The notes under the pieces were generated by a model. It was given only the letters and a program-made list of their open reading frames with translations, was not told where the DNA came from and searched no databases. A program made the position numbers and the translations under genes. This document shows positions 1 to 64,000 of a stretch of DNA of 64,000 bases, piece by piece; the stretch's first letter is position 1; every line of letters begins with the position of its first letter. This DNA is from Ostreococcus lucimarinus (lineage: Eukaryota), in assembly GCA_000092065.1 (NCBI GenBank), contig CP000583.1. The stretch is one strand, 5' to 3'.

Positions 1-2475
1 GACTCTCCGATACTTAAACAGCGTCAACGTCTTCCGGCGTGGGCAAAGCAACAAGAACTCATCGACGCCGTCGAGCGCAACCAAGTGCTCATCGTCGCCG
101 GCGAAACGGGTTGTGGTAAGACTACACAGCTGCCGCAGTTCATTCTTGATAACGCTATCTGGCAAGGACGTGGAGCGATGACAAACATGATTTGCACACA
201 GCCGCGTCGAATCAGCGCCACGAGCGTGGCGAGTCGCGTGGCGAGTGAGCGAGGTGAACAAATTGGCAAAACAGTGGGCTATAAAATCCGTCTTGAAGGC
301 TCGATGAGCTCGAGCACGCGAATTTTGTTTTGCACCACGGGCGTGTTACTGCGTCGTTTAACCGAAGACCCTTTACTGAGCGGTACGAGTCACGTGATAG
401 TCGACGAAGTCCACGAGCGCTCGCTCGATTCTGATTTCTTACTCGTCTTGTTGCGCGATATTTTGCCGCATCGACCGACACTCAAAGTGGTGCTGATGTC
501 AGCCACGTTGAATGCGCTCGCGTTTGAAGACTATTTCAAGGGCGTTTCTGCGGTGAGCAAAATCCCTGGGTTCACTTATCCGGTGAACGAGCATTATCTC
601 GAGGACATCTTACAAGTGACCGAGTATCAACCAAACCCAGGGACGGAGTATTTTAAAAAGGCGCCGCGACGCAGGGACAACTTTGACGCCTCTAGTCGAC
701 CGGTGTCAAGTAAGGATGGCGACATACCGGATGAAGACTCGTTCAACATTACGTTGCGGGACAAGGGCTACGGTGACAACGTCGTTCGCGCTCTCCGAAA
801 CCTCGAACAGGGTTTGATCAATTACGAGTTGATGACGCTTTTAATCTCGCACATTTGCGAGTCGATGGACGAAGGCGCAATACTGGTATTTATGCCCGGT
901 TTGGCGGAGATCACGAAGCTTTACGAGGCGTGTGGGGCGAATCCTACGATCAACGCGGCAACGTCTGGAGGAAAATACCTGATTGCTTTGCACAGCACGC
1001 TGAGCACGGCCGAGCAGAGCATCGTATTCGATCACGCCCCAGACAGCGTGCGTAAGATAGTCATCGCAACAAATATCGCAGAGACGTCGATCACGATCGA
1101 CGATGTCGTGTACGTAGTCGACAGTGGCAAGTGCAAAGAAAACGGCTACGATCCAAACACTCGAATGCAGCTGCTTCTCGAGCAGTGGGTGTCTCGTGCG
1201 AGCGCTCGACAGCGTCGCGGTCGCGCGGGACGCGTGCAAGCCGGCCGATGCTTCCGAATGTACACGCGTCACGTGCACGATACGGTCTTCGCTGAACACA
1301 CGCTTCCTGAAATCAGACGCGTGCCTCTAGAAGGCTTGTGCTTGCAGATTCAGCTACAACGCATGGCTGGGGGCATCGCCGGATTTCTCGGCAAGGCGTT
1401 GGAGCCTCCGAAGGTTGAGTCTGTGGAGGCGGCGGTGGCGTCTCTCAAACGCCTTGGTGCTTTGGATGAGCGTGAATGCCTGACCCCACTCGGTCAACAC
1501 TTGGCTACGTTACCCGTGGATGTTCGCGTGGGTAAGATGCTCCTCTACGGCTCCATGCTTGGGTGCCTGGATCCCGTGCTCACGATTGCTGCCGTCTTGA
1601 GCGGTCGTTCGCCGTTTGTGGCGCCGCTCGACAAACGCGACGAAGCAGATCTCGCCAAAAAGCTCTTCGCCGAAGATCAATCGGATCATCTCACGATTCT
1701 GAATGCCTATAATGGCTGGCAAGATGCGAAGAAGCAAGGACGATCGTCTGAGTTCGCGTTCACCCGCGAAAACTTTCTCTCGTGGAGAGCACTCGAGGGC
1801 ATCGCAGATCTGCGGAACCAATTTACACAACTTCTGAATGAATCAGGTTTCCTGGGATCGTCGTCGAAGAAGAAAGGTGGTGGACGGTATCGCGGTCGCC
1901 AGCGCGGTAATGTCTTGGAAACCGACGTAGATTGGATTCGAGCGAATCGAAACTCGGAGAATAAACGACTGTTAAAGTCGGTTCTCGTGGCTGGGTTGTA
2001 TCCAAACCTCATCAAAGTCGACCCCGGTTCTCGTCCAGATGCCCCACCCCGTCTGTCTTTCCTCGCCGAGAACGGGCGGACGGAAAAAATCCAAATTCAT
2101 CCATCGAGCATCAACTTCGAGGCGAAGAAGTTTATCACCAAGTGGCTGGTGTACCACGAGCGCGTGCAGACGACGGCAATCTTCGTGCGCGATTGCACGG
2201 CGGTGACGCCTTATCAACTTCTATTGTTCGGGGGGAAAATCGAAGTGCAACACACGCAAGGAACGATAAGTATCGATCGCTGGGCGACGTTCCAAGCTCC
2301 AGCAAAAGTAGGAGTTTTGCTCAAAGAGATCCGAAACCAGCTTGACCGCGTGCTGGCGCAAAAAATTGAAAACGTCGGCAAGGACGTCGGCGAACTTTCC
2401 AACCCTCTCGTGCTCACGATTCTCGAGCTTCTCGATTCGGAGAAGATCGCGAAGATGTCCACAAAACCAAATTAG
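1..2475 (+). CDS. DEAH-box ATP-dependent RNA helicase (DHX36/DHX57-like); 5' end lies upstream of the window
   Basis: The reading frame is open from nt 1 (…LPAWAKQQELIDAVERNQVLIVAGETGCGKTTQ). Motifs GETGCGKTT (Walker A), DEVHERS (DEAH), SATLN, TNIAETSITI and QRRGRAGR are present. A long HA2/OB-type C-terminal region follows, with stop TAG at 2473-2475. Confidence 0.9.
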   Translation, partial: DSPILKQRQRLPAWAKQQELIDAVERNQVLIVAGETGCGKTTQLPQFILDNAIWQGRGAMTNMICTQPRRISATSVASRVASERGEQIGKTVGYKIRLEGSMSSSTRILFCTTGVLLRRLTEDPLLSGTSHVIVDEVHERSLDSDFLLVLLRDILPHRPTLKVVLMSATLNALAFEDYFKGVSAVSKIPGFTYPVNEHYLEDILQVTEYQPNPGTEYFKKAPRRRDNFDASSRPVSSKDGDIPDEDSFNITLRDKGYGDNVVRALRNLEQGLINYELMTLLISHICESMDEGAILVFMPGLAEITKLYEACGANPTINAATSGGKYLIALHSTLSTAEQSIVFDHAPDSVRKIVIATNIAETSITIDDVVYVVDSGKCKENGYDPNTRMQLLLEQWVSRASARQRRGRAGRVQAGRCFRMYTRHVHDTVFAEHTLPEIRRVPLEGLCLQIQLQRMAGGIAGFLGKALEPPKVESVEAAVASLKRLGALDERECLTPLGQHLATLPVDVRVGKMLLYGSMLGCLDPVLTIAAVLSGRSPFVAPLDKRDEADLAKKLFAEDQSDHLTILNAYNGWQDAKKQGRSSEFAFTRENFLSWRALEGIADLRNQFTQLLNESGFLGSSSKKKGGGRYRGRQRGNVLETDVDWIRANRNSENKRLLKSVLVAGLYPNLIKVDPGSRPDAPPRLSFLAENGRTEKIQIHPSSINFEAKKFITKWLVYHERVQTTAIFVRDCTAVTPYQLLLFGGKIEVQHTQGTISIDRWATFQAPAKVGVLLKEIRNQLDRVLAQKIENVGKDVGELSNPLVLTILELLDSEKIAKMSTKPN

Positions 2476-2530: not shown

Positions 2531-3244
2531 CTATGACCAACTTCTCGTCTTCGCGTGCACGCGAGCCACATCCGTCATGTAATCCCCGCTCAATCGAGCG
2601 TACGCCGTGCGATTCGCGCGCTCGATCTCTCGTCGAGCGCGCTCCTCGTCACCATTAATCTCATAAAATAACCCCAAATATAACGCGCTATAAAACTCAT
2701 CGCTCGCGTTCGAGCGTCCGGCTTCGCGCAGGCGCGTCGCCGCCTCTTCCGATCCCTCCGCGAACAGCGCGAAAACGCTCGACATCACCGGTCTCGAATC
2801 CCGACCGGTGATCAACATATTTTCTCTCGCGTACGCGATCCCTTTCTCCGGATCCATCGCCTCCGAGGCGAAGCACCACACGCTCTCCTCCGTATCGTTC
2901 GGGTTCTGCGCCACGTCCAGTCGAAACTGCTTCGCCGCCTCCTCGTACGCCCCCGCGTAGTACAGCGCCAGCCCGCGCTGCCACATGTACGCGCTAAACC
3001 TCTCATCGCTCGCGATGGCGTCGTCGAACGCGTCGATCGCGCCTCTGACGTCGCCTCTGATAAACTCCCTCGCGCCGCGCTTGATCTTTTCGCTCGCCAC
3101 CGATGCGTTCGCTCGCTCCGCGCGCGCGCACGTCGCCACGATCGCCGCCGCGACGCCGCGCAGAGCGTCGCGACGATTCGTTCGTCGTCTCGCGTCGCGC
3201 GTCGCGCACGCACGCGGCGCGCGCGCGCCGCGAGCGGCGGACAT
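2531..3244 (-). CDS. Small TPR-repeat protein with an Arg/Ala-rich N-terminal presequence (possibly organelle-targeted)
   Basis: A 237-aa ORF has a true ATG at 3244. It contains TPR-like helical repeats (YMWQRGLALYYAGAYEEAAKQF…, FYSALYLGLFYEINGDEERARREIERA). Convergent AT-rich 3' ends with the helicase gene. Confidence 0.55.
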   Translation of the reverse strand: MSAARGARAPRACATRDARRRTNRRDALRGVAAAIVATCARAERANASVASEKIKRGAREFIRGDVRGAIDAFDDAIASDERFSAYMWQRGLALYYAGAYEEAAKQFRLDVAQNPNDTEESVWCFASEAMDPEKGIAYARENMLITGRDSRPVMSSVFALFAEGSEEAATRLREAGRSNASDEFYSALYLGLFYEINGDEERARREIERANRTAYARLSGDYMTDVARVHAKTRSWS

Positions 3245-3279
3245 TTAGTGACGTGTGGATGTTATCCACACGTCACTAA
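3245..3279. promoter_or_regulatory. Perfect inverted repeat (16-bp arms, 3-bp spacer) TTAGTGACGTGTGGAT-gtt-ATCCACACGTCACTAA in a bidirectional promoter
   Basis: Read directly from the sequence. It lies immediately upstream of the TPR gene ATG (3244, minus strand) and 150 bp upstream of the SufC ATG (3433, plus strand). The core TGACGTG/CACGTCA resembles ACGT-core bZIP/CRE-type sites. Confidence 0.6.
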
Positions 3280-3357
3280 TTCCGACACACTAATTCCGAC
3301 ACACTCCGACGCGCCGTTCGCGCGCTCGCCGTTCGCGCGCTCGCCGTTCGCGCCCAC
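3274..3357. repeat. Short tandem direct repeats in a promoter region: CACTAATTCCGACA x2.5, then GCCGTTCGCGCGCTC x3
   Basis: Read directly from the sequence between the divergent TPR and SufC genes. Confidence 0.7.
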
Positions 3358-3432
3358 GCGCGCGCAAGTCCGCCCGCGACACTCTCGCGCCGCTCGCGCG
3401 CGCTCGAACGCCTCGAGCGACGCGCGCGCGCG

Positions 3433-4305
3433 ATGTCCCGATGCGCAACCACGACGGTGACGGCGCGCGCGCCGACGCGCGTCCGCGCGCCGTCGAACGC
3501 GATCGCGCGACGCGCGAGCGCGCGATCGGTGCAGACACACGCCGGTCAGGGTAAAGTGCTGCTCGAGGTGAAGGACCTGCACGCGAAAGTCGCGGAGACG
3601 GGAGAGGAGATCCTGAAGGGGGTGAACCTGACGATTCGCGAGGGCGAGACGCACGCGGTGATGGGCAAGAATGGCTCGGGGAAGAGCACGCTGACGAAAG
3701 TGCTGGTCGGACACCCGGCGTATGAAGTCACGAGTGGTAGCGCGACGTTCAAGGGCGAAGCGCTGTTCGAGATGGAACCCGAGGAACGCGCGCGAAGCGG
3801 GTTGTTTTTGTCGTTTCAGTCGCCCATCGAAGTCCCGGGGGTGTCGAACACCGATTTCCTGAGAATGATGTGCAACGAACGAAGAAAGGCGCGCGGGGAG
3901 GAGGAATTGGATCCTTTGGAGTTTTATGGATATCTCACGCCCAAGTTGGAGGCGTTGAACATGGATCCGAGCTTCTTGACGCGCAACGTCAACGAAGGGT
4001 TCTCCGGTGGCGAAAAGAAGCGAAACGAAATTTTGCAGTTGGCCGTGATGGAGAGCGAGATGAGCATTTTGGATGAGATTGATTCCGGTTTGGACGTCGA
4101 TGCGTTGAGAGACGTGGCCAAGGCGGTGAACTTGTTGAGACAAGGCGACAAGGGCTTGCTCCTCATCACGCACTACCAGCGTCTTTTGGACGCCATTCAC
4201 CCCAATTTCGTGCACATCATGCAAAAGGGGCAAATCGTGCAAACCGGGGGAGTCGAGATCGCGACGCAGCTCGAGGAGGGTGGTTTCGCGTCGCTCGCGC
4301 AGTAG
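3433..4305 (+). CDS. sufC: SufC, Fe-S cluster assembly ATPase (ABC-type), nuclear-encoded with about 40-aa N-terminal extension
   Basis: Walker [13 protein letters not shown] signature FSGGEKKR, Walker [11 protein letters not shown] and H-loop ITHY are present. The sequence aligns end-to-end with SufC. True ATG at 3433. Confidence 0.9.
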
Positions 4306-9515: not shown

Positions 9516-12500
9516 CTAAATCGTTTCACCCGTGGCCTTCTCGTATTGCGTCTTGAGAGCGACGACGAGACGCCAATCATCCTTCGTCAATTCTTCACGG
9601 AAGCTTTCCTTCAACATGTCGATCGACTCGCGCGTCATTCTCGATACGAGCTGATCTTTATGATCAAAATGGCGACCGTAAAGTCGCGAAGATTCACTGG
9701 GCGTTCTCGGTTCGATCTTCATCGCCACAGATTGACCGGCAGTTGCCTTCTTCACCTCCTTGTGGTTGAGTTCCATCGAAGCAATCTTACCAATGTCGAT
9801 GTAACCTTGCGATGGGATGCAAATTTGCGTCCCCACGCGAGCGACCCCCTTGACAATGTCAACACCAACGACGATGGGATCGCGCTTGTTGAACACGCAG
9901 TTGGGCATGATTTGCAAGATGCAAGGGAAGTTGACGTGCTGCGACGCGGCTTCACGCTTGTCTGCCTTGACCTTTTCCATGTACGCCGTGAATTGATCAA
10001 ACAAGTGGTAGATGATGTCGGCGGTGAAGATGCGAACGTTGAGCTCTTCGCCCATTGCGTGCGCCTCCTTCGTCACCGGCACGTCAAAAGCCAGAATAGT
10101 AGCATACTCGGGCTTTTTGCGCTCGTGCATGACGCTCGCACCCATGACGTCCCGTTTGTTTACCGGGCCAATGGCGATGCCGGCGACGGGAATTTTGACC
10201 GCGTCAGATTTCAAGAACTCCAACAAGGCTTCCAAAGAACCGAGCGTAGACGCCTGCACGTACACGCCTTCGCCACTCTTATCAACACGAGCAAGCACGC
10301 CCTTCATATCACTTAAAACCTCTTCCCTGAGTTCCATTTCGTCGTCTTCAGGATCGAGCACCAAAAGAGACGTACCTGCGACAGCTTTCTCTAATCCAGT
10401 GGCGACGATCTTGATCCCTTGAGCGCCTTCGATTTCCTTGTGATGAATGTAGCTTCCCTTCACCCGCATCTCTCGCATGGGCTGCGGTGTAAGTAATGCA
10501 CGAATTTGAGTCGTAATCGCCCCCTCTAACCCAGCAACGACGATTGTCTGTCCTTCCTTGAGCTTACCGTTGATGAGAATGACGTCAACGCTCGTACCGA
10601 GACCTTCGATCATCTTCACTTCAAGCACGGTACACTGTACGGCAGGCACGTATTGAATGCGCTCGTTCATGCGATTTTGGCACAAGTCAACAAGCGTTTG
10701 CAAAATGTCCGGCATCCCCTCACCCGTAATAGCAGAGGTTGGGATGATGTTGATGAAAGTACGTGGGTCCGGGTTCTCCCAGTACTTCGCCACGTTCAAA
10801 CCTTGCTCAGCAAACTCGATGACGATCTTGTCGTAACGATCTTGGAACTCGCGTCGAGCGTGATCCTTTTGTAAGGACAAAGTCTCCTGTGTTGGGAAGT
10901 TGGTATTTTCCGTCCAGTCGTACATGCGATCGATTTTGTTGAGCGCAATCACAAAAGGCGTCTTTCGCGATCGAAGCATGTTCAACGATTCTATCGTTTG
11001 CGGCTCTAAGCCGTGCATGATATCAACGACGAGAATGGCGAGATCACAAAGTGACGAACCTCTCGAACGCAAGTTTGTGAAAGACTCGTGTCCTGGGGTA
11101 TCGATAACGAGCAAACCGGGAACTCGCAAGTCCCATTCACCCTTGTTTAGCTGCGCCGTTCGCTCGAGGAGAGACTCCTTGGGAATAAAAGTCGCACCAA
11201 TTTGCTGCGTAATACCGCCAGCTTCTCCGTCTTGGACGTTGGTTCGTCGAATGTTATCCAATATCTTCGTCTTACCGGTATCAACGTGCCCCATGATGCA
11301 TATAATTGGGCAACGAAGCTTGCTTGGACTGCGCTTTGCCTTGGCCAACTCGAAGCGTGCCAAACGCGCAATCTTTGCCGCCTCCATGCGCTCTTCGTGT
11401 TCACGTTGACGGACGTCATCGCTATCCTCGCGGTAATCCGAGCTATCGGAGTACTCAGAGCTGTCGCTGTCGGAATCAGAGTCAGAATCAGAGCCAGAAT
11501 CAGAGCCAGATCCTTCGTCAGATTCTTCGTCAGAGCCCGAAGCGTCAGCAGCTTCCTTGGCTGCGGCGGCCTTTTCCTTGGCTTCCTTGGCCCACGGCTT
11601 TTCAGCCGCAATCTTCGCCTTGATCGCCTTCTCCGCCGCGAATTTGGCCGCAGCCTCAGCCGCTTTCTTCTCCGTCTCGTGACGTTTCTGCTCGGCGGCC
11701 TCTTTCTCCGCCTTTTCCTTAGCCAAGCGCTCCTCCTCTTCTTTCTGACCCGGAAGGATAATCTCCTTGTCGTCCCAGTCTTCCGCTTCCCAGTCATCGG
11801 CAGCGTCGTCATCTTCAGCTTCGGCGGCGAGTCGGGCTTCTTCTTCAGCTTTAGCCTTCGCTTCAGCCTCAGCACGCTCTTGTTGTTGCTTTCGACGCTC
11901 TTCCATCTCTTTCTTCTTTTTGCGATCGTCGTAAACCGGACGTTTCGGCTTGATAACTTCGTCGAGTTTATCTGCGTCAATCCCAGACTTGGCTAACATT
12001 TGCTGGCGCATCGCGGCTAAACGCGCTTGTTCCGCCTTTTGCTTGTTGCTGAGAAGTTTGCCTTCGGCACGGAGGCGCTCCTTCTTCTCCTTCTCTTTTT
12101 GTTTCTTTGCCTCGCGACGCGCTTCCTCCTCTTCTTCTTTTTGTTTCTCAAGACGTTCAGCCTCCTCCGCCGCGGCTCTTGCCTCGGCTTCAGCTTTGGC
12201 TTGAGCCTCTTCCACCTCCTTACGCTTTTGCATTTCTGCTTGAAGGGCGAGAATTCTCGCACTTGGCGCGCCGGCAGACTTTTGCTTCTTCTCCGCCTCT
12301 GCCGCCGCCTTGGCCTTGGCTTCCTTTTCTTTTTGCTTCTTCTTGAGCTTCTTCTTTTGCGACGCCGAAAGCTCTTTGCCATCTTCAAGCGCATCGCCGT
12401 CATCATCATCATCATGATTATTGCCATCGGTAGCAGGCGCCGCATCGGCGGCATCACCGCCAGCTGCGGCTTCCGCGGCTTCGCGCTCGGCTTTCAATCG

Positions 12501-13778
12501 GCGCTTCTTTGCCGCTTTACTCTCGCCAGCCGGCTCTTCTGGCTTGGCCTCGATTTTGATGTCAAGCTCGGCCAAAAGAGCGTCGAGGTCTTCCTCGTCG
12601 TCGGCCGCTTGCTTACCACCTTTTTTCTTTTTCTTCTTGTCCTTCTTCGAGCCACCAGTTTCGTTGGCGACGAGTTCGGGTTCGGGTTCGGGTTCGGGTT
12701 CGGGCGTCTTTTCCTTCTTCGTCGTCCCGGGCGCTTTCAAAGGCACATCATCGCCGATGGAAAAAGCAGACTTATCGAGCTCGTACACGCCATCCGCGCT
12801 ATCGGCCCAACCCATCTCCACCGCGCTGAGAATCATACCTTCACTCATGACGCCGCGCAACGGCGTCTTGTCGATGACTTGGCCGCTGGCGGGGATTTTC
12901 ACGCCGACGCCTGCAAAAATCACCAACAAACCTTTTCTGGCGTTGGCACCACCGCACACGCACCGTTTCGGTTCGTCGCCGCCGAAATCGACGGTGCAAA
13001 CTTGCAGACGATCCGCCATCGGGTGCTTGCTGCATTCGATGATCTTACCCACGACGAGTTCGGGTTCGGCGACGAGCTTTTTCTTTTTCTTCTTTTTGAG
13101 ATCAATCGCGACTTCCACCGCCGCGGCTTCCTCGTCGGCATCCATGAGATCGGCAAAGCTTCCCTTCTTCTTCTTCTTTTTGTCTTTCGTGTCCGCGGTG
13201 CGAGACTCCGAGGCTTCTTCGTCGTCCTCCGCGTCCTCGTCTTCGTCGTCCGCCATCAAAGCCGCGAAGCCGCCCTTTTTGGATTTCTTCTTTTTATCCT
13301 TCTTCGGCTTGACATCCGCCTCCATCTCCTCTTCCTCGTCGTCATCATCGCCACCACCCATCAACGGATCGTTCACGTCGTCGTCCGACCCCATCAACGC
13401 CGCGAAACCACCTTTTTTGGATTTCTTCTTCTCCTTCTTCGGCTTCGTCGCCGCCGCCGCCGCGCGCACCTCCTCCTCCGACGCGTCGTCCGCGTCATCC
13501 GCGTCGTCATCCGACCCCATCAACGCCGCGAAACCTCCCTTTTTAGACGTTTTCTTCCCCTTCCTCGGTTTCACCGCGCGCGTCTCCCCCTCGTCCGCCT
13601 CCTCTTCGTCCGCCTTCTTCGCCGCCGCCGCCAGAGGGTCCAAATCCTCGTCCGAGTCCTCCCCTCGTCCTCTCCCGCCCCGCCCGCCCTTGCCCTTCGC
13701 CGCCTTTCGCGCCTTTTTCATCTCCGTCTTCGACATCGCTCTCGCGCCGTCGTCCGCGTCTTTCGCGCCGTCGTCGCG

Positions 13779-13816
<38 letters not shown>

Positions 13817-13898
13817 CCGAGGGATCGACCCCGTCGTCGTCGTCGCTCGAATCGTCCCCTCGCTTGCCCTTGCGCCCGGCTCGCTTGCCCTTCGCCAT
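9516..13898 (-). CDS. Eukaryotic translation initiation factor 5B (eIF5B) with a Myf/EMAP-II-type tRNA-binding domain embedded in its charged N-terminal region
   Basis: The C-terminal GTPase region has GHVDTGKT, DTPGH and NKID. The long K/E/D-rich N-terminal region is typical of eIF5B (start MAKGKRAGRKGKRGDD, ATG 13898). The same ORF contains an OB-fold tRNA-binding domain (…VVGKIIECSKHPMADRLQVCTVDFGG…RGVMSEGMIL…) at about 12725-13075. The ORF-track extension to 14456 is an R/A-rich artefact. Confidence 0.85.
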
Positions 13899-14034
13899 CG
13901 CGCGGCGCGCGGGAACGTTCTCTCTCGCGCGCCGTCCGTCGTCGGCGCGCGCTCGCGCGTCGCGCGCGCGTCGCGGTGTGTCCATCGCGCCGTCGCATCT
14001 TTTAAACGTCGAGACATCGCGACGCGCGCGCGCG

Positions 14035-40996: not shown

Positions 40997-42814
40997 TCAG
41001 ACGCGCAGGACTTTGACGACGCCGTTTGAGTTCGCGGCGACGAGCACGGATTCATCGCTTCGCCACGCGCACGCGCTGATGAAACCGCGAGGTTCGTTCG
41101 CGTCCCGAGCGAACCCGATGGACGCGATGGGCGACGAAAGATCCTTGCGGTAAATGAATACCTCGTTCGTTTCGCTCCCGCACGCGACGTGGTCGCCGAC
41201 GGCGGTGAGGCCGACAAAGTTTCGTTCGTTGACGTGTCCTTTGAGCGCGCACGTGAGTTCGCCTGTGTTGACGTTCCACACGTTGATGGTGTTATCCGTC
41301 GATGCGCTCGCGATTTCGTTGGCGTTGAGGTACTTGACGTAACTGACCGCCTTGCGATGGCTGTCGAGGATTTGCACCGGCTCGGCCAAGCGTCGCAAAT
41401 CAAAAATATACACCTTTTGGTCGACGCAACCGACCGCGATGCAATGCGCGTTCTCGGGTGAATACTGCGCACAGCAGACGTTCGCTTTCATGTCGATCTC
41501 GTGCACGCTGTTCGGTTGATCGGTGTTCCAAATCTTCACCAAGTAATCATCCGAGCCACTCACTAAAAGTCGCGGATCCGTGCGACAGTAGTCAACGGTC
41601 CAGATTCGCTTTTCATGCTCCTCAAAATCTATGATGCTGCACTTTTTCTCGACATCCCACACCGAAACGACACCTTCGTAATCACTCGCCGCTATGTGAT
41701 GCTTAACAAACTTGTTGTAAGACAAGCACGTCAGCTTGGACCGAGTGTTGATTTCATCCGCGGGTTGCTGTGACCCCTCGAGCACGTGCTCGAGGTTGTA
41801 AAACTGAATTCGTTTGGACACACCTGCGGTAGCGAAGTACTCTTGCGTCGAATCGAACTCAATGCTGCTGACGGGCGCGCCTGGGTTTGACGCGTCTTCT
41901 TCGCCGCGAATCTCCGCCGCGATGGAAATGTTCGAGTATCGTTTAAACGTGTCAATAATCGTCGAAAACTCCTCCATAGTCGTCGAGTCCGGGGCGTACC
42001 CTCGACCACCATTGAGCGCGCTACCACTCGACTTACCACCATCGCTGGTGACATCGTCTCGTTCTGCGCTTCTTCTCTTGGAATACCAGCTCTGCAATTC
42101 GCTAAACTGCCTCAACACTCTGCGTCGCTTCGACTCGTCGATGACGATTTGCGACTCACCCGGCCGCGTCAAACCCAGCGCTTCCATCGCGTGCGCGATC
42201 ACTTCTTTATCGTGCAAATCACTACGTTCGTGCGACACTCGTGCACCGCCACCCAAGGCCTCAATTTCCCTTCGCACCGCGTCGATGTCGGCGTCTAAAC
42301 ACCTCAACTCTCGCTCGAGCGCCACCGCGCTCGCCTGCTTCCTCGCTCGGCTCTCTACTAAGAACTCCTTCAACACCTCTCGCGACACTGCGCGTGATTC
42401 CAGCACCAAACTTCGATGTTTCTCGCTCAAAGTCTTCACCAAAGGTGTCAATCGTTCCAAATCGTCTTCGCCGTCCTCGGCGCTCGTCGAAGCCGCCGCC
42501 GCTTCGCTCGCCCCTGACTTCATAGCCGCAACCATCGCGTTCACCGCCGCATTTGGCACTAACTGTGCGCTGGTAAACATCGACGAGCATGTCGGGCACC
42601 GAGCGCTCACCCCGGCGTCCGCGCCGCCGTCTCGGGGCGCCGCCGCCGCCGCGTCGAGCGCCGCGCTCGCGCACCCGTGACAAAACGTGTGTCCGCACGT
42701 CGCCACGCAGTGCGCGTCCGTGAACGGTTCGAGACATATCGGACACGTAACGTGTGCGAGCATTGCTGACGTCGCGCGCGCGTGCGCGCCTCGCGGTAGC
42801 GTTAACGCCGACAT
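40997..42814 (-). CDS. COP1/RFWD2-like E3 ubiquitin ligase (RING, coiled coil, WD40)
   Basis: RING CPICLEPFTDAHCVATCGHTFCHGCA…CPTC is present. A coiled-coil region and C-terminal WD40 repeats (…LVSGSDDYLVKIWN…) follow. ATG at 42814. Confidence 0.8.
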   Translation of the reverse strand: MSALTLPRGAHARATSAMLAHVTCPICLEPFTDAHCVATCGHTFCHGCASAALDAAAAAPRDGGADAGVSARCPTCSSMFTSAQLVPNAAVNAMVAAMKSGASEAAAASTSAEDGEDDLERLTPLVKTLSEKHRSLVLESRAVSREVLKEFLVESRARKQASAVALERELRCLDADIDAVRREIEALGGGARVSHERSDLHDKEVIAHAMEALGLTRPGESQIVIDESKRRRVLRQFSELQSWYSKRRSAERDDVTSDGGKSSGSALNGGRGYAPDSTTMEEFSTIIDTFKRYSNISIAAEIRGEEDASNPGAPVSSIEFDSTQEYFATAGVSKRIQFYNLEHVLEGSQQPADEINTRSKLTCLSYNKFVKHHIAASDYEGVVSVWDVEKKCSIIDFEEHEKRIWTVDYCRTDPRLLVSGSDDYLVKIWNTDQPNSVHEIDMKANVCCAQYSPENAHCIAVGCVDQKVYIFDLRRLAEPVQILDSHRKAVSYVKYLNANEIASASTDNTINVWNVNTGELTCALKGHVNERNFVGLTAVGDHVACGSETNEVFIYRKDLSSPIASIGFARDANEPRGFISACAWRSDESVLVAANSNGVVKVLRV

Positions 42815-43110
42815 GCGCTCACGCTGACGTCACACGAATCACGTCAGAGATATCCGACGTGCGCGTCGCGTTCTAGCGTCTGTGAAGCGTGTGCGCGCGC
42901 TCGAAGCGGCGCACGTTCGTGTTTGGACGCACTCAAACGCGCTCGAGCGTCGCGTTCGAGGCGCGCGGCGAGGTTTGAGGCTGTGCTCACACTCGCCGCC
43001 GTCGCGACGCTTTTTCGTCGACGCGACGCGGTTGTGACTAGGCTACGCTCGCTACATCATACGCTATTGGTGCTAGGACACACTACGATGCGCGCGGTAA
43101 ACGGAATATA

Positions 43111-51805: not shown

Positions 51806-52846
51806 TCATCCGCACGGGCGAAGTTTTGAGTTACCGCCGCCGTAGGGGTTATCATCCTTGAACTCGTCCCACGCGCGCGCCTTTCGAAGCGCCTCTTCCT
51901 CGAGCTGGTCTTCGGATTTCGAAGCGCGGTCGATTTCGGCGAGACGCGCGCGCTCGACTTCCCGCGCCCGGCGCTCGAGCATCTCCGCGCGTTCGATCTC
52001 TCCCGCCTGCTCGATCGTCATCGTCGGTAAGATGTGCGATGGACGAAACACCTCCGAGCGCATGCGCGCGCGCGGGTCGACTCGGACGACGTCCGCGGCG
52101 AGCGACATCGCGGCGGCGTCGCGTTCGATTGTATAAATCTCCGGCGCGCGCCGCCCGACGCGCTCGTCTTCGTTCGCCATGCGCTCGCGTTCGCGCTCGC
52201 GCGCGTCCTCCAGCTCAGACCGTCGCGCCAACATCTCGCTCTCCACTCGCAGCGTCGGGAGCTCATCCAGAGATTCATACACCGCGCGCTCCAACGTCAG
52301 CGTCCAAAACTCGCGCTCGAGCGCGTCCCCGTCCTCGTCCTCTTCATCCTCATCCCCATCTCCACCGTCCCTTCGCGCCAGCGTCGCTCGAATCGTCTCC
52401 AACCGCGTCTCCACCGTTCGTTTCGCCCTGTACCGTCGCACTTTCTCTTCCCTCGCGTCGTTTCTTCCCGTCGTCCCGTCGCCTCCGCGCGTCCCCGCGC
52501 GCGTCGTCGCCTCGTCTCGCCCGTCCGCGTTCGCCTCCCTCTCGTACGCCTCCACCTCCGCTCGCGGCATCGCCTCGATCGCGCGCGTCAGCGCCAGAAA
52601 CCTCTCGTGCGCGTCCACGGCCTCCGCGATCGCGCCCGCGCGTCGCAGCGCGTCCGCCTCGCGTCGGCTCGCGAGCGCGTACTTGACGTCCGCCGTCGGC
52701 CACGCGTCGAGCGTCTCCGTCGCGCCCGCGACGCTCGATCGCGCGACGGCGCGTCGCAGGCGCGCGCAGTCGTCGACGCTCGCGGTCGGCGCGCTCGCGC
52801 GCGCGTACAGCGTCGGCAGCGGCGCGTCGTCGTCGCGCGTCGCCAT
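51806..52846 (-). CDS. TAP42/alpha4 (IGBP1) PP2A-associated protein
   Basis: The TAP42-family C-terminus …EVFRPSHILPTMTIEQ…KARAWDEFKDDNPYGGGN is present. ATG at 52846 (M54 of the ORF). Confidence 0.65.
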   Translation of the reverse strand: MATRDDDAPLPTLYARASAPTASVDDCARLRRAVARSSVAGATETLDAWPTADVKYALASRREADALRRAGAIAEAVDAHERFLALTRAIEAMPRAEVEAYEREANADGRDEATTRAGTRGGDGTTGRNDAREEKVRRYRAKRTVETRLETIRATLARRDGGDGDEDEEDEDGDALEREFWTLTLERAVYESLDELPTLRVESEMLARRSELEDARERERERMANEDERVGRRAPEIYTIERDAAAMSLAADVVRVDPRARMRSEVFRPSHILPTMTIEQAGEIERAEMLERRAREVERARLAEIDRASKSEDQLEEEALRKARAWDEFKDDNPYGGGNSKLRPCG

Positions 52847-52947
52847 CGCGCGCGCGTGTGTCGACCGCGCTTTGTCCGTGCGTCGCGTCCACTCGACGAC
52901 GCGCGCGGCGCGAGCGACGCGAGGGAAGGCGCGACGAACGACGAGAG

Positions 52948-55563
52948 ATGACGCGCGGGAAGACGGCGTCCGCGGGCGCGACGCGATGGACGCGAACGCT
53001 CGCACTGGCGCTCATCGCGATGGTGTTGGGCGCGGTCAGGGGGGATTCGACGACGGGCGCGACGCGAAAGTTGCTCGGCGGTGGCGGCGGTGGGAACGTC
53101 ATAGACACCGTCGTGGAAACGGCGGAAGATTTCGGGGAAACGGTGAGCGAGGTGATCGAACCGGTGGTGTCGGAAGTGATGAACGACGCGACGGTGCAAT
53201 CCATGGTCACGGAGACGGTGAGCTTCGCGGAGGCGGAGTACCAAGCGTCTTACGACTGGACCGAAGACGCGTACCACACGGTTCGACAAGACGAGATTTG
53301 TCAACTCGTGGGTCAGGCCACCGTGGATGCGTTTGAATCGACCGAAATCGTGTCTCGAATGGATGAGTATTACGACGACGCTAAGGGTTGGACCGAAGGA
53401 GCGGTCCAAAAGCTCGAAGAAACCGCGGTGGAACTCGCCAAGGACATTGAAAAAGTCGCCGAAATGATCGCAGCCTTCTTCAACGGCTTACAATGTCTTG
53501 AAGTCGCAGACACTTTACAAGACATGTTAAAATCTGTCCTGAAGGACGTCAGTTCCGGGAACGTGAAAAATTTGCTCGACGATGTCAGCAAGCGAGTGGA
53601 CAAATACAAGAATAATCTCGACGGCCCACTGTGCGAATCCATGTGGGCTCTGACTCTTGGTCCACAAGCGATCGTCATCGCAGAAATGATGAGATCTTTC
53701 ATCTCGACGCTCAAAGATAAATGTCCGGCTGCCATGTCTGGCTCCGATCTGCCCGCGTTTGCGCTCGGATTCATAGCGAGTGGCGACGCTTACGCCCTCG
53801 CTTCCACCGGTGCGGGTATCGAGCTCGCCATCGGCATGGATTTGCACGGTGAACGCTTTTGCTACGTCGCAGGCTGTGCGTACGGCGGCATCACCTTCGG
53901 TGATGCCGGTTACGGTGGTACCGCTGGCATACAAGTCACGGGATACAAATCTATTTCGTCGGTTCCCGGTACGGCAAACTTCATCTCCCTCGGGCTCGGT
54001 GTCGATATTCCGCTCACTCCTATCGGTGCAGAAGCCGGTGTGACTTACGTGTATTCTGGTAATGACATGTCCGATCCCATTGGGGTGGCATTTATGGGTG
54101 GGGGGAGCTTGAGCGCGAGCACGTCCTTGCTTCCGGCGTCAGTTTCCCTCATGCACGGTATTTGTCACACACCAGTCTGCGTGACCGTTCAGGGAACAGA
54201 ATGCGGCGCAAAGGAACCAATCTTGGCGATCGGAAATAAACACAAAAACGTCGCATGCGAAGGCAGTAGTAAAACGCTTTCGTGTCCAGCTGGTAAGACG
54301 ATAAGCGTGAACGCAGCGTCGTATGGGCGACATGATGGAACCACGTGCCCGCACAGCGCGACTTCGAATCGAAACTGCCACGCCACCAATTCGCTCGAAA
54401 AAGTGAAGAAAATGTGCGAAGGCAAGACCTCCTGCACGGTCACGGCGAGTCATGGTATTTTCGGTGATCCCTGTGCAGGTACGTACAAGTACTTGAGTGT
54501 TGACTACGAATGTACAGATTCGAAAACAGCGCTCGCGTGTGAAAGCCAATATACCGACTTGTCTTGCCCGGAAGGTCACACCATCAGCGTGCACACTGCA
54601 TCGTATGGGCGACATGATGGAACCACGTGCCCGCACAGCGCGACTTCAAATCGAAATTGCCACGCATCTGGCAGTATGAAGTATGTCAATGAAATGTGCG
54701 GGGGCAAGAATAAGTGCACGGTTCGGGCAGATCATAAAATCTTGGGTGACCCTTGTGGCGGAACCTACAAGTATCTGGAGGTGACATACGGCTGCGTGCT
54801 TAGTGTCATGAGTAGATCGACTCTCACGTGTGAAGGTGGTACAGATGCTCTTGAGTGTCCACCTGGATACGTAATCGATCTGCAAGATGCGCTCTACGGT
54901 AGAGTCGATCGTGACGTCTGTCCTCACCCCGCTATTCACACTGACACGTGCAGTGCGAACGGTGTCTTCGACAAGATTGCAGCCGAATGTAACGGCAGGT
55001 CAACCTGCTCTCCAAGTGCGTCGAACTCAAGGTTTGGAGATCCTTGCGGTGGGACATATAAATACTTGAGCACGAAGTACCAATGCGTTCCACCATCTAC
55101 ATCGACGAGCGCGCTCGCTTGCGAAGGACGTCCAGCGTCGATGTCATGTCCATCAGGACAAACTGTTTCGGTCATCTCGGCATCCTATGGACGACACAAC
55201 GCACACACGTGTCCCCACTCGGCCGTATCGAACCAGAACTGTCACGCGAGCAACTCTCTCGAAAAAGTCAAAAGTCAGTGCGACGGACGGCGCAGTTGCT
55301 CGCCGCACGCGAGTCACCACACTTTCGGTGATCCCTGCGGAGGCACATACAAGTATCTCGAAGCTGCGTACACGTGCGTCTCAGACTCAGCGTCCGCCGG
55401 GTTGGGGAGCGGCCCACTGACGACCAGAGTGTCCTGGTTGCAAACGTTTTGCCTCGCCGTCGCGGCCGTCGGATTCGCGCTCTACGGACGCGCCGACCGC
55501 CGAGACGCCGCCCTTCGCCCAGCCGCGCTCCGCGACGCGCGAGACTACGGCGCGAGACGCTGA
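52948..55563 (+). CDS. Secreted/membrane-anchored protein with an N-terminal domain and four tandem SUEL-type (galactose/rhamnose-binding) lectin domains
   Basis: A signal peptide (…TRTLALALIAMVLGAV) is present. Four repeats follow of C..G..ISV..ASYGR.DGTTCPHSA.SN.NCHA…C.GK..C.V.A…FGDPC.GTYKYL…Y.C. A C-terminal hydrophobic tail (LQTFCLAVAAVGFALY) is present. ATG at 52948. Confidence 0.75.
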   Translation: MTRGKTASAGATRWTRTLALALIAMVLGAVRGDSTTGATRKLLGGGGGGNVIDTVVETAEDFGETVSEVIEPVVSEVMNDATVQSMVTETVSFAEAEYQASYDWTEDAYHTVRQDEICQLVGQATVDAFESTEIVSRMDEYYDDAKGWTEGAVQKLEETAVELAKDIEKVAEMIAAFFNGLQCLEVADTLQDMLKSVLKDVSSGNVKNLLDDVSKRVDKYKNNLDGPLCESMWALTLGPQAIVIAEMMRSFISTLKDKCPAAMSGSDLPAFALGFIASGDAYALASTGAGIELAIGMDLHGERFCYVAGCAYGGITFGDAGYGGTAGIQVTGYKSISSVPGTANFISLGLGVDIPLTPIGAEAGVTYVYSGNDMSDPIGVAFMGGGSLSASTSLLPASVSLMHGICHTPVCVTVQGTECGAKEPILAIGNKHKNVACEGSSKTLSCPAGKTISVNAASYGRHDGTTCPHSATSNRNCHATNSLEKVKKMCEGKTSCTVTASHGIFGDPCAGTYKYLSVDYECTDSKTALACESQYTDLSCPEGHTISVHTASYGRHDGTTCPHSATSNRNCHASGSMKYVNEMCGGKNKCTVRADHKILGDPCGGTYKYLEVTYGCVLSVMSRSTLTCEGGTDALECPPGYVIDLQDALYGRVDRDVCPHPAIHTDTCSANGVFDKIAAECNGRSTCSPSASNSRFGDPCGGTYKYLSTKYQCVPPSTSTSALACEGRPASMSCPSGQTVSVISASYGRHNAHTCPHSAVSNQNCHASNSLEKVKSQCDGRRSCSPHASHHTFGDPCGGTYKYLEAAYTCVSDSASAGLGSGPLTTRVSWLQTFCLAVAAVGFALYGRADRRDAALRPAALRDARDYGARR
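54250..55380 (+). repeat. Four tandem SUEL-lectin domain repeats with near-identical nucleotide stretches (recent intragenic duplication)
   Basis: The segment tcgtatgggcgacatgatggaaccacgtgcccgcacagcgcgacttc…aatcgaaa.tgccacgc is repeated at about 54325 and about 54600. Confidence 0.7.
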
Positions 55564-55706
55564 CCTCACCGCGGATCGCCTTTTTTCCTTTTGTCATATC
55601 TATTTTTGTCTCCTTTACGTTTACATCGTTTACGTTTCGTCGACGGCGCGTCGTCGCGTCGTCGTCCCGGCGACCTCTCGCGGTCTCGCGACCGCAGACG
55701 GCGACG

Positions 55707-59631: not shown

Positions 59632-59740
59632 CACTAGCGATGTAATTTTACAAGTAGGATAGGAAATCAAATGTGTCGCTGAGTTTCGCGAGAACTCACA
59701 TCGTCGGCGTCGGTTAAGTGATTGTGCATCAAATCGTCCA

Positions 59741-62700
59741 TCAAATCATCGCCCGGTCGTCGTCGCCGTGCGCGTCGAGCACATCCAAAGCAAAACGTCC
59801 ATCAGGACAATCTCGAGACCTAGTCGCTATGAACGTTCGACCGAGGTTGTCAATAGACCACATGCTTGCGTTTTCAAAATGCTTACGATCCGATCGTCGC
59901 ATCGTTTCGTCCACTTCGGGCATCCACGACGCGTCGTCGTCGAACGGAGCCAACGTGAGGAAATCCGTTCGTACGCACGTGACCAGGTCTTTCTTGGGCG
60001 GTTCGACACCTTTGACGACGACGGCACCAAGGGCGCGGAATCTCGCGGGAGCCACGGGCATCCACACCGTAAAATCGGACTGCTCGCGATATATGAGCTC
60101 AAATCGAACTGGTGGACTGAGCACAACGCTGTTGCCGCCGCTTCGTAAAACCATACTCACAGGCTCGGACGGAGGATTTGTGCCACCGATGACGTGACCG
60201 AACGCGATGTACTTATCTACTGGTGGGATGGGTGCCCAAAAACACGTCTGACCTCGGCTTACCACGCATTTCCAGTTGACACAAGGCATGTATGGAGGAA
60301 GAGGTTCGCCGTCGTCGTCGTACTCGTCCTCATCAAACTTTGAGTTTGATCGTCGCGTCATTTCGTCTGCAATCATCGCCGTCAGCTCCTCCGGTTGATT
60401 CGTACCAGGAGTCGTTTTGATCACACGTGTGATTCGTTGCTTTTCGAAAAGTCGCTTCTTTCGACTGTACTCTTTTAGGTGCAGTACACAATTCGCCGGG
60501 GCTTGCACTTCGACGTGAAGTAACTCGTGCCATCCCACGTGCCAAAGGGCGACGTACTTGTCTGCCGCCGTTCGTTTCAACGTCACCACGCGCTGATCGG
60601 TGAGAACGATCAAATAAGCCCTCGAGTTGACCTCAACGCTTCCGAGATACTTGTCTCGGCCGTAGTACCCTTTGTGTGTGAACACTTCATCGATTCCACC
60701 GCCCAACTTTCCTCGCTCGGCGGTCCGCAATGCGCGCTGCGAGCGCGCGGCGTTCGCGTCGTACGTGCGCAAAATACCGTCGGCATGCTGAGCGCGAGGT
60801 TCCCGAATTCGATGTTGCGGCGCCGACGAGTTAACGCCAAGCGCACTTTTCACTCCATCGACACCCGACGCAATACCTTCCGCAGTTCGACCTACGGCGG
60901 CTAAACCGCCGGCGATGGGTTGCGTCACGGCTCCAACCAAACCTTTACCGACACCTTTGACGAAGCCAAGCGCGCCGCCTTTCGTAGCACCTTCGATCGG
61001 TTTTCGGAAAACCCCGGTAAAACCTCGGAAGACGCCCTTGGCGAGCATCTCGGTGCCGGAAGCTAAACCATTTTTGATGGAATCAGCCTTTTGGGCGTCG
61101 GGTCCAAGCGTAGCGTTCATAGAGTGCGAAAACTTTTTGTCAAGACTTAAAGCGGCGACTCCCGCGGACGCCTGACTAAGCGCCTGTGAAAACGAGTCCA
61201 AAACATCGACACCGACGAGCAACAAGAGTGCTTGTCTGGCGACTTGTCGAGAGTAAGAATCCGATATCATCCTCATGAAGGCTTGCTCGAGCGTGCGCAC
61301 TCTCCTTACTCGAAGCGCATGCAGATACAATTGACCGTCATCGATGTTTACGAAAGCCATGCCAGCCATAAAAGCAGGCATCGCGTGCTTCGGCCTTGAA
61401 TAAAGCGCAGAACGGAATCGCAATCGCAATTTCAGTTCACTCACGTGGAAGCTACCGATAGCTATCGGAAGGTTGACGACTTCGAGACGTTCTCCTCCAT
61501 CTTTTGATGACGTCGTGTTCATCACCTCTGAAAAGTTTACCAGTCGCCAAATGAGCGGTTCGTGCACGGCGAGTTGCACGTCAAGCGGAGCGAAGGTAAC
61601 GTCGATGAATGGATAAATGCGCATTTCCAACCCAGCAGATGTCTTGGTGACCACTTTAACGGTCAAGAATGAATGTTCTCGCGTGTCCCCAAGCAAACGC
61701 ACGACGACAGGATACTGAGAGCCATCATTCATATCGTCGACTTGTAATGATTTCACCGTGAGTGCCATGCGTTCAATTCCCCCACCGACGCCTGAGAGAT
61801 ACTCGAAACCAACGCCACTGGTAGTGCAATTGATAATTTCACTCATCGCACCATCGACAATAGCAAGGCTGCTTTCTGTGATAAGCACTGAGATGCGCGA
61901 CTCCGTCGAGCTCGCGCGGCTTGCGGAGACCAAATGCTTGGAGACTGTCGAGCTGCCGTATGACTTGATACGCACAATACGCCTTCCTCTTCTTAACCGA
62001 CGGGTGACCGGCAGGAAATTGAAGTAAACTGAATCACCACCGTCAATGTCGAGTTCCGCCGTCGTCTTCAGCTCGATCTTTGGTACGGGCAAACCGGGCA
62101 ACATTTCGTTCTCTGTTCCGAGATCCAAGTGGTCGAAATCATAGACGCGTTGAATCGAACTTTGAAACGAGCCTTTCTGAAGCACTCGCACTGCAAGTTT
62201 TCTCGCATCTCGCGGTCGAGACCACGCGAAAGCTTTCGCTGATTGCGGAGGTACCACGATCCACGCTTCCAAATTGTCTTCAATCGCACAAGCTTGTCTG
62301 AAGGCGACGAAATCGACATCGCTGGCGTTCTCAATGAGAATGTTTGCGGTGAAACGAGGTTCGATCGCACAGCTGACTCTTGACACTCCGAGTTTTGACG
62401 TATCCAAATGTAAACTCAACAAATCGAACTCTTCGGGATTGACTGAACTCCGTATCGGGATTTTCATGGAATCCTTGATCGTCTTGATGCCGTACAAGTC
62501 TATCGGAGCAGACCATTTTGCGTGTGGAAGTTTGATTCGAACCAAACCGTCGTCGTTCGCGGTTTGCATCTTCAGAGGCACGGTGATATCAGTCGCCTTC
62601 AAAATTAGTGCGGAAGCGTCTTTGTCATCAGAACTTTGAGCCAGCAAAATATCCATGCCAGTTTGATTCGTAACCGTACATCGCGGCTCAATGAAAACAA

Positions 62701-63982: not shown

Positions 63983-64000
63983 AGATAAAGGGCCTTGCTG

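Follow-up and report, generated by a model that had tools for sequence, protein, structure and literature searches.

The perfect palindrome found in the spacer between a TPR protein gene and the divergent gene for SufC, the Fe-S cluster assembly ATPase, is probably a young, derived structural variant and not a conserved dyad element. The locus constitutes a natural series of at least four promoter variants at a mutational hot spot. Judging from what is retained across this series and in a sister species, the functional part of the spacer is probably the pair formed by a conserved ACGT box and a GGATAA box.

The palindrome and the spacer shared by TPR and SufC

The window, by which we mean the entire 64-kb stretch of DNA analyzed, carries tightly packed eukaryotic genes and has a G+C content of 61%. 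The features of the locus are summarized in Table 1. Since the spacer between the divergent genes measures only 188 bp, it must hold both promoters as well as both 5' UTRs. The SufC protein matched TIGR01978 with 335 bits (cut-off 212.8) and displayed an N-terminal extension of ~43 aa. The N-terminus of the TPR protein is Arg/Ala-rich and follows an RR-hydrophobic-AxA pattern; by eye, this part (residues 1-48, 3100-3244; …RRRTNRRDALRGVAAAIVATCARAERANA/SV) resembles a short transit peptide with a twin-arginine thylakoid-lumen signal after it. In the Arg/Ala-rich presequence, one contig (L021, allele B) showed a 15-nt in-frame insertion, ACGCGGCGCGCGCGC, at window position 3227, and small indels were also observed at 2525-2528, where a 3' spacer separates TPR from the helicase gene.

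Many marine metagenome contigs encoded SufC and TPR proteins identical to those of the window, with the exact TPR protein occurring on 492 contigs in all, and the TPR homologues beyond the closest marine metagenome groups belonged to land plants and green algae. Judging from the composition of the window and the genes on it, the source is probably a picoalga of the Mamiellales, most likely Ostreococcus. The divergent TPR/SufC order was also found in five other lineages (L009, L017, L018, L026, and L028). Two divergent genes less than 1 kb apart in a conserved arrangement agree with the short bidirectional promoter proposed in the preliminary description of this DNA. The TPR homologue of L024 (2300-3300) was not located beside SufC, indicating that not every lineage of the group has kept the two genes as a divergent pair.

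Several features were recorded elsewhere in the window. The N-terminal part of ORF 9516-13985, at 12786-13985 on the minus strand, has a strongly A-rich coding strand with an AT skew down to -0.5 and encodes a low-complexity Lys/Asp/Glu region comprising about four repeats of K-rich...KKGGFAALMGSDDD; the sequence after this region resembles, by eye, a tRNA-binding (EMAP/Trbp111-like) domain. On a crude gene map, 51856-55706 and 59632-64000 contained no long high-GC3 ORFs, and toward the 3' end of the window the G+C content was lower, at 0.49-0.56. These stretches may represent intron-containing genes or a compositionally different segment.

A perfect palindrome with 16-bp arms and a TGACGTG core had been described at the ATG of the TPR gene. 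Both the structure and its placement were confirmed, the palindrome directly adjoining the TPR start codon, which reads CAT at 3242-3244 on the plus strand. The first three bases of the palindrome (TTA) create an in-frame TAA on the minus strand just upstream of the TPR ATG. At loops of up to 8, it was the longest perfect inverted repeat in the 64-kb window; the other inverted repeats with arms of 12 or 13 were all of the (CG)n type, and no other inverted repeat outside low-complexity sequence had arms longer than 11. When the window was resampled with a first-order Markov model (n = 60), the longest arm ranged from 9 to 13, and 16 was never reached. The DNA fold of the 35-mer amounted to -17.1 kcal/mol (z = -9.0).

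The two tandem repeats that had been reported beside the palindrome were also present with 100% matches; their copy numbers, previously given as 2.5 and 3, had been set slightly too high and were found to be 2.3 and 2.8. The 15-mer repeat was the same in alleles A-D (see below) and degenerate in the sister species L009. We take its core, GTTCGCGCGC, to resemble an E2F-type site; in this CG-rich window it occurred 8 times versus 4.6 expected.

Table 1. Coordinates of features at the TPR-SufC locus, and the structural alleles of the spacer
Feature	Position or source	Strand	Description
TPR protein gene, 237 aa	2531-3244	-	Pfam TPR_2 match
Intergenic spacer, 188 bp	3245-3432	.	Common to the divergent TPR and SufC genes
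Perfect palindrome TTAGTGACGTGTGGAT-GTT-ATCCACACGTCACTAA	3245-3279	.	Arms of 16 nt, 3245-3260 and 3264-3279, 100% complementary
ACGT-core box GTGACGT (TGACGTG, C/G-box hybrid), original copy	3248-3254	+	GTGACGTC in allele B and L009
Palindrome loop GTT	3261-3263	.	Inverted AAC of the conserved GGATAAC box
19-mer module TTAGTGACGTGTGGATAAC, inverted copy	3261-3279	-	Second GTGACGT at 3270-3276, GTGGATAAC box at 3261-3269
14-mer tandem repeat CACTAATTCCGACA	3274-3305	+	Tandem Repeats Finder: 2.3 copies, 100% matches; allele A only
15-mer tandem repeat CGCCGTTCGCGCGCT	3312-3353	+	Tandem Repeats Finder: 2.8 copies, 100% matches
SufC gene (Fe-S cluster assembly ATPase), 290 aa	3433-4305	+	NCBIfam TIGR01978; JGI name
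Allele A	window, L001-L008, L019, L020		TTAGTGACGTGTGGAT GTT ATCCACACGTCACTAA TTCCGACACACTAATTCC
Allele B	L011-L016, L021		TTGTGACGTCGCGCGCCGTGTGTGGATAAC
Allele C	L022		TTAGTGACGTGTGGGGATAAC
Allele D	L023		TTAGTGACGTGTGGGTGTGGATAGAGTGACGTGTG

Four structural alleles and the origin of the palindrome

Reading the spacers from the TPR CAT to the common GACACACTCCGACGCG distinguished at least four structural alleles within one species, and the palindrome and the 14-mer repeat were confined to allele A. The palindrome was found neither in alleles B, C, and D nor in the sister species L009; within allele A, it was base-for-base identical in ten independent metagenome contigs (ENA, Logan, JGI). Alleles B and C possess a single GTGACGT(C/G) box, then GTGGATAAC (B) or GGGGATAAC (C), the ACGT box and the GGATAAC box of allele B being 11 nt apart. 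Allele D shows a direct duplication of GTGACGTGTGG.

Eight contigs were fetched via the exact SufC protein, and these were identical to the window over the spacer. The allele B contigs L011-L016 were fetched via P0002, a TPR protein extended upstream by a prokaryote-style gene caller, and alleles C and D were exposed by the upstream-extended SufC calls P0130 (L022) and P0131 (L023). These extensions across the spacer, which lengthened the TPR protein from 237 to 267 aa (P0002) and SufC from 290 to 341 (P0130) or 336 aa (P0131), are annotation artefacts of the alleles without the palindrome; in allele A, the palindrome supplies the in-frame TAA upstream of the TPR ATG. Retrieval by exact-protein look-ups biases this sample of contigs with respect to allele frequencies. 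In a scan of JGI metagenome contigs with a pattern bridging the variable region, three loci were recovered, two of allele A and one of allele B, with zero intermediates.

Over 4-12 kb, contigs of all four alleles exhibited 98.8-99.9% identity to the window. Compared with the window over 7 kb, allele C carried 9 substitutions and allele D carried 15, about half of the latter lying inside the variable segment. Among the A, C, and D haplotypes (~7 kb), all indels fell within 3259-3297, and 7 of the 8 indel blocks between the allele B contig L012 and the window lay within 3247-3296. This concentration of indels in a segment of ~50 bp on near-identical backgrounds marks the segment as a mutational hot spot.

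The sister species L009 (L010 was identical) provided the polarity of these changes. It shares 84-87% DNA identity, 77% TPR amino acid identity, and the same gene order with the window, and its spacer reads CAT CGT GTGACGTC TCACACGCCACGA GTGGATAAC AGCACAT TTCGACGCG, with 13 nt between GTGACGTC and GTGGATAAC. Since this is the layout of alleles B and C, namely one ACGT box, a spacer, and GTGGATAAC in the forward direction, allele A is derived. The allele A contigs L019 and L020 have the flanking SNPs 3739 and 4258 in common with allele C, which makes allele C the closest sampled relative of allele A.

The inverted segment, 3261-3279, is the exact reverse complement (rc) of TTAGTGACGTGTGGATAAC at 19 of 19 positions, the complement GTTATCCACACGTCACTAA beginning at position 17 of allele A, and removing GG from the allele C module yields TTAGTGACGTGTGGATAAC itself. 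Single-switch solutions were searched exhaustively, and the best one composes allele A, reduced to a single 14-mer copy, of preA[1-16] + rc(preA[1-19]) + 3 nt + rest, in which preA is allele C minus GG, a hypothetical precursor absent from the sampled alleles. This solution leaves unexplained three untemplated bases (TTC), the GG indel that separates preA from allele C, and the 14-nt tandem duplication that came later. The segment is thus an exact reverse complement of adjacent older sequence, and the outgroup lacks the inverted copy. Perfect hairpins and inverted repeats are known to arise in one step through template switching, as formulated in the four-point model (Loytynoja and Goldman, 2017, PMC5453318; Monttinen and Loytynoja, 2022, PMC8794818).

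From these sequence relations, we infer a template switch as the mechanism that gave rise to allele A. The ancestor would have carried a single GTGACGT(C/G) box, then GTGGATAAC, immediately upstream of the TPR start codon. A template switch during replication, with fold-back copying of the opposite strand, would have appended an inverted copy of the 19-mer to the original, and this would have produced the perfect palindrome with its 16-bp arms and a loop stemming from the AAC of GGATAAC. A 14-nt tandem duplication beginning inside the new arm would have come next; since the 14-mer unit opens with the bases that close the new arm, CACTAA, the tandem duplication is placed after the palindrome.

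Alternative readings of the palindrome

It is conceivable, though unlikely, that the palindrome of allele A, and independently the duplication of allele D, were selected as adaptive cis-regulatory variants. With a spacing of about two helical turns, a pair of ACGT boxes would then bind bZIP dimers more strongly or cooperatively, and the expression of SufC and/or TPR would be raised or re-tuned in some ocean populations. The adaptive reading draws on the two independent duplications of GTGACGTGTGG, inverted in A and direct in D, on near-identical backgrounds, on the recovery of allele A in 10 contigs from several projects in addition to the window, and on the uniformity of all allele A contigs, which varied neither in the palindrome nor in the 14-mer copy number. 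However, such a microhomology-rich GT/GTG sequence would be expected to rearrange again and again at a mutational hot spot by itself, the exact-protein look-ups biased the retrieval of allele A, and alleles B and C as well as the sister species function with one box. That allele A was recovered most often, in a retrieval biased in this way, could reflect selection rather than neutrality, and the independent doubling of GTGACGTGTGG in A and D fits selection for site number equally well as mutational instability. We consider it rather improbable that the allelic series is under selection so as to tune plastid SufC and/or TPR expression across ocean populations, for example under different iron or light regimes. 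If the series is selected, template switching would have generated the palindrome in the course of adaptive cis-regulatory evolution.

The palindrome had also been suggested to act as a hairpin in a 5' UTR. As it adjoins the TPR AUG, it is very probably transcribed, and in allele A the 76 nt of RNA upstream of the AUG indeed folded at -32.4 kcal/mol (z = -4.3). The same upstream RNA showed no significant fold in alleles B, C, and D or in the sister species (z = -1.1, +0.3, +0.1, and +1.6, respectively), and an Rfam search of 3000-3600 (E <= 1) returned two sub-threshold bacterial sRNA matches, with no family threshold reached. Moreover, a stable stem at the AUG is expected to hinder initiation. 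A functional, conserved 5'-UTR hairpin governing translation or stability of the TPR mRNA is therefore very unlikely, and this earlier suggestion was not upheld. An allele-specific side effect is possible: if the region is transcribed, a hairpin of roughly -30 kcal/mol would stand immediately before the TPR AUG in allele A and would presumably lower TPR translation.

A perfect inverted repeat beside short direct repeats might also bring to mind the remnant of a mobile (MITE-like) element, that is, a terminal inverted repeat or an excision footprint. This origin is highly improbable, given that both arms consist of local ancestral promoter sequence, that the 35-mer lacks a flanking target-site duplication, and that the 11-mer GTGACGTGTGG has no exact copy in the 64-kb window beyond the two arms; the JGI contig scan, being anchored in the flanks, could recover this locus only and not dispersed copies. 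Finally, although library preparation can generate palindromes, an assembly or sequencing artefact such as a fold-back chimera can be practically dismissed, since the identical palindrome is present in the window and in ten assemblies that were produced independently, by various projects and with various pipelines.

The ACGT and GGATAA boxes and their known counterparts

Derivation of the palindrome as a recent variant directs attention to the sequence shared by all forms of the spacer. All four alleles, and the sister species too, retain GTGACGT(C/G) at a distance of 2-4 nt from the start codon of the TPR gene, in the form TGACGTG in A, C, and D and TGACGTC in B and L009. A GGATA(A/G) box is likewise present in all of them, as GGATAAC in B, C, and the sister species, inverted in A, and as GGATAG in D, and the sequence between the ACGT and GGATAA boxes varies freely. 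The preliminary description had proposed the whole dyad as a cis-regulatory element. This proposal is reasonable for the ACGT core, which is retained in four alleles and a sister species, and failed for the 35-bp dyad, which occurs in only one of the four alleles.

The combination of GTGACGT with GGATAA at a distance of <=30 nt was found once each in the window (64 kb), L009 (12.7 kb), L012, and L018 (4.9 kb), in every case in the TPR-SufC spacer, the TPR protein of L018 being 52% identical. After block shuffling of the L018 locus, such a pair appeared in 0.6% of trials (0.006). In L017, TTATCC lies 20 nt from GTCACGTG, and the spacer contains two further GTGACGT sites. In L029, TGACGTTCGCGCGCCGTG precedes the likely TPR ATG by 5 nt (215-247, minus strand). 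The ACGT box thus occupies the same position in L009 and probably in L029, and lies at other points of the spacer in L017 and L018; both boxes are absent from the spacers of L026 and L027. The true TPR start is ambiguous in L028, and L024 and L025 are uninformative for the boxes owing to a TPR gene without adjacent SufC or a contig cut at the gene. As a separate observation, TGACGTTCGCGCGCCGTG of L029, whose TPR protein is 52% identical, agrees with TGACGTCGCGCGCCGTG of allele B at 17 of 18 positions when a single 1-nt indel is allowed. This match hints that the B-type spacer is old, an inference weakened by the CG-rich sequence.

The window-wide frequencies of these motifs were unremarkable. 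A motif search for the 11-mer had been recommended, and when run over the window it disclosed no exact copy other than those at the palindrome. GTGACGT was not enriched in the window (18 observed versus 15.4 expected), GTGGATAAC occurred at chance frequency, and the density of TGACGT was not clearly higher outside ORFs (1.11/kb in non-ORF DNA versus 0.90/kb in ORFs, on a crude ORF map of the window). With motifs at chance frequency, the window supports no claim of a genome-wide regulatory motif.

Taken together, the comparison of spacers is suggestive of, but not conclusive for, a functional bipartite element at the TPR/SufC promoter. Such a module would most likely bind a bZIP (HY5-like) dimer at the ACGT core and a Myb/GATA-type factor at GGATAA, both being candidate interactions. 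It would serve the shared promoter, lying ~155-185 nt before the ATG on the SufC side and, on the TPR side, in or at the very start of the 5' UTR. In allele A the module is doubled with its two ACGT cores inverted and 19 nt apart, measured between their starts, and in allele D it is doubled with direct cores at 22 nt; in either allele, the second site could raise bZIP occupancy.

A lead to the factor reading the ACGT box was obtained from another gene of the window. The ORF at 40997-42814 on the minus strand was identified as a COP1 orthologue with RING and WD40 domains (PDB 7vgg, E = 2.8e-112), and residues 23-604 of this COP1-like ORF matched the COP1 chains 9lul and 9ltr. An ACGT cluster comprising TGACGTCA, CACGTCA, GAGATATCC, and GACGTG is located at 42825-42862, 11-45 nt upstream of the COP1 orthologue, and represents the only other TGACGT-type cluster in the non-ORF DNA of the window. 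The Arabidopsis COP1 promoter contains three HY5-bound ACGT elements (PMC12903397), and the COP1 orthologue of the window likewise has three ACGT boxes upstream. In addition, HY5/HYH orthologues exist in Ostreococcus (PMC5508029). The ACGT cluster of COP1 and the presence of HY5/HYH together suggest a HY5-type bZIP as the most plausible reader of the ACGT box. Within the COP1-like coding region, a 20-nt perfect palindrome, CCTCGAGCACGTGCTCGAGG, with the G-box core CACGTG was also noted at 41776-41795.

The series comprises one ACGT box in allele C, one with an 11-nt spacer in B, two direct boxes in D, and two inverted boxes with a hairpin in A. In a transformable picoalgal genus, the four alleles could be used directly as a ready-made experiment to study ACGT-box function and the effects of 5'-UTR hairpins. 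Outside animals, yeast, and bacteria, the locus would offer a clean case of template-switch mutagenesis, and it illustrates that a striking promoter dyad can be the by-product of one mutation and not a selected binding site, as well as that comparison within a population and with a sister species tells a conserved core from an accident.

With respect to its architecture, the locus resembles the bidirectional promoters of the compact Mamiellales genomes, in that the divergent genes lie 188 bp apart and the arrangement is kept across several lineages; the sole oddity here is the hypervariability of one segment of ~50 bp. As for the palindrome, its likeness to described template-switch mutations (PMC5453318, PMC8794818) consists in the exact reverse complement of adjacent sequence, the perfect stem, the clustered complex changes, and an ancestral state without the inverted copy, which is represented here by the sister alleles and the outgroup. 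In contrast to those cases, extra events (3 nt, the GG indel, and the 14-nt duplication) are needed and the direct precursor is unsampled; moreover, whereas those cases concern RNA genes, the present one is situated in a picoalgal promoter. Classic quasi-palindrome mutation hot spots are also counted among the closest known kinds.

The boxes themselves find their counterparts in the plant ACGT elements bound by bZIP factors such as HY5 (C-box GACGTC, G-box CACGTG, and the C/G hybrid GACGTG), with which they share the TGACGT(C/G) core, the closeness to the start of nuclear plastid-type genes, and conservation in a sister species. They differ from those elements in the lack of motif enrichment in the window, in patchy conservation beyond the genus, and in a location 2-5 nt from the ATG, hence probably inside the TPR 5' UTR and not upstream of the start site. 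We also take the arrangement of a GGATAA-type box and an ACGT box 11-20 nt apart, seen in the window species, L009, and L018, to resemble the I-box/G-box light-responsive units of plant photosynthesis-gene promoters; box order and orientation vary here between lineages, and the resemblance serves as a lead only. Nothing at the locus falls outside known kinds, namely template-switch hairpins, quasi-palindrome hot spots, and plant ACGT bZIP elements.
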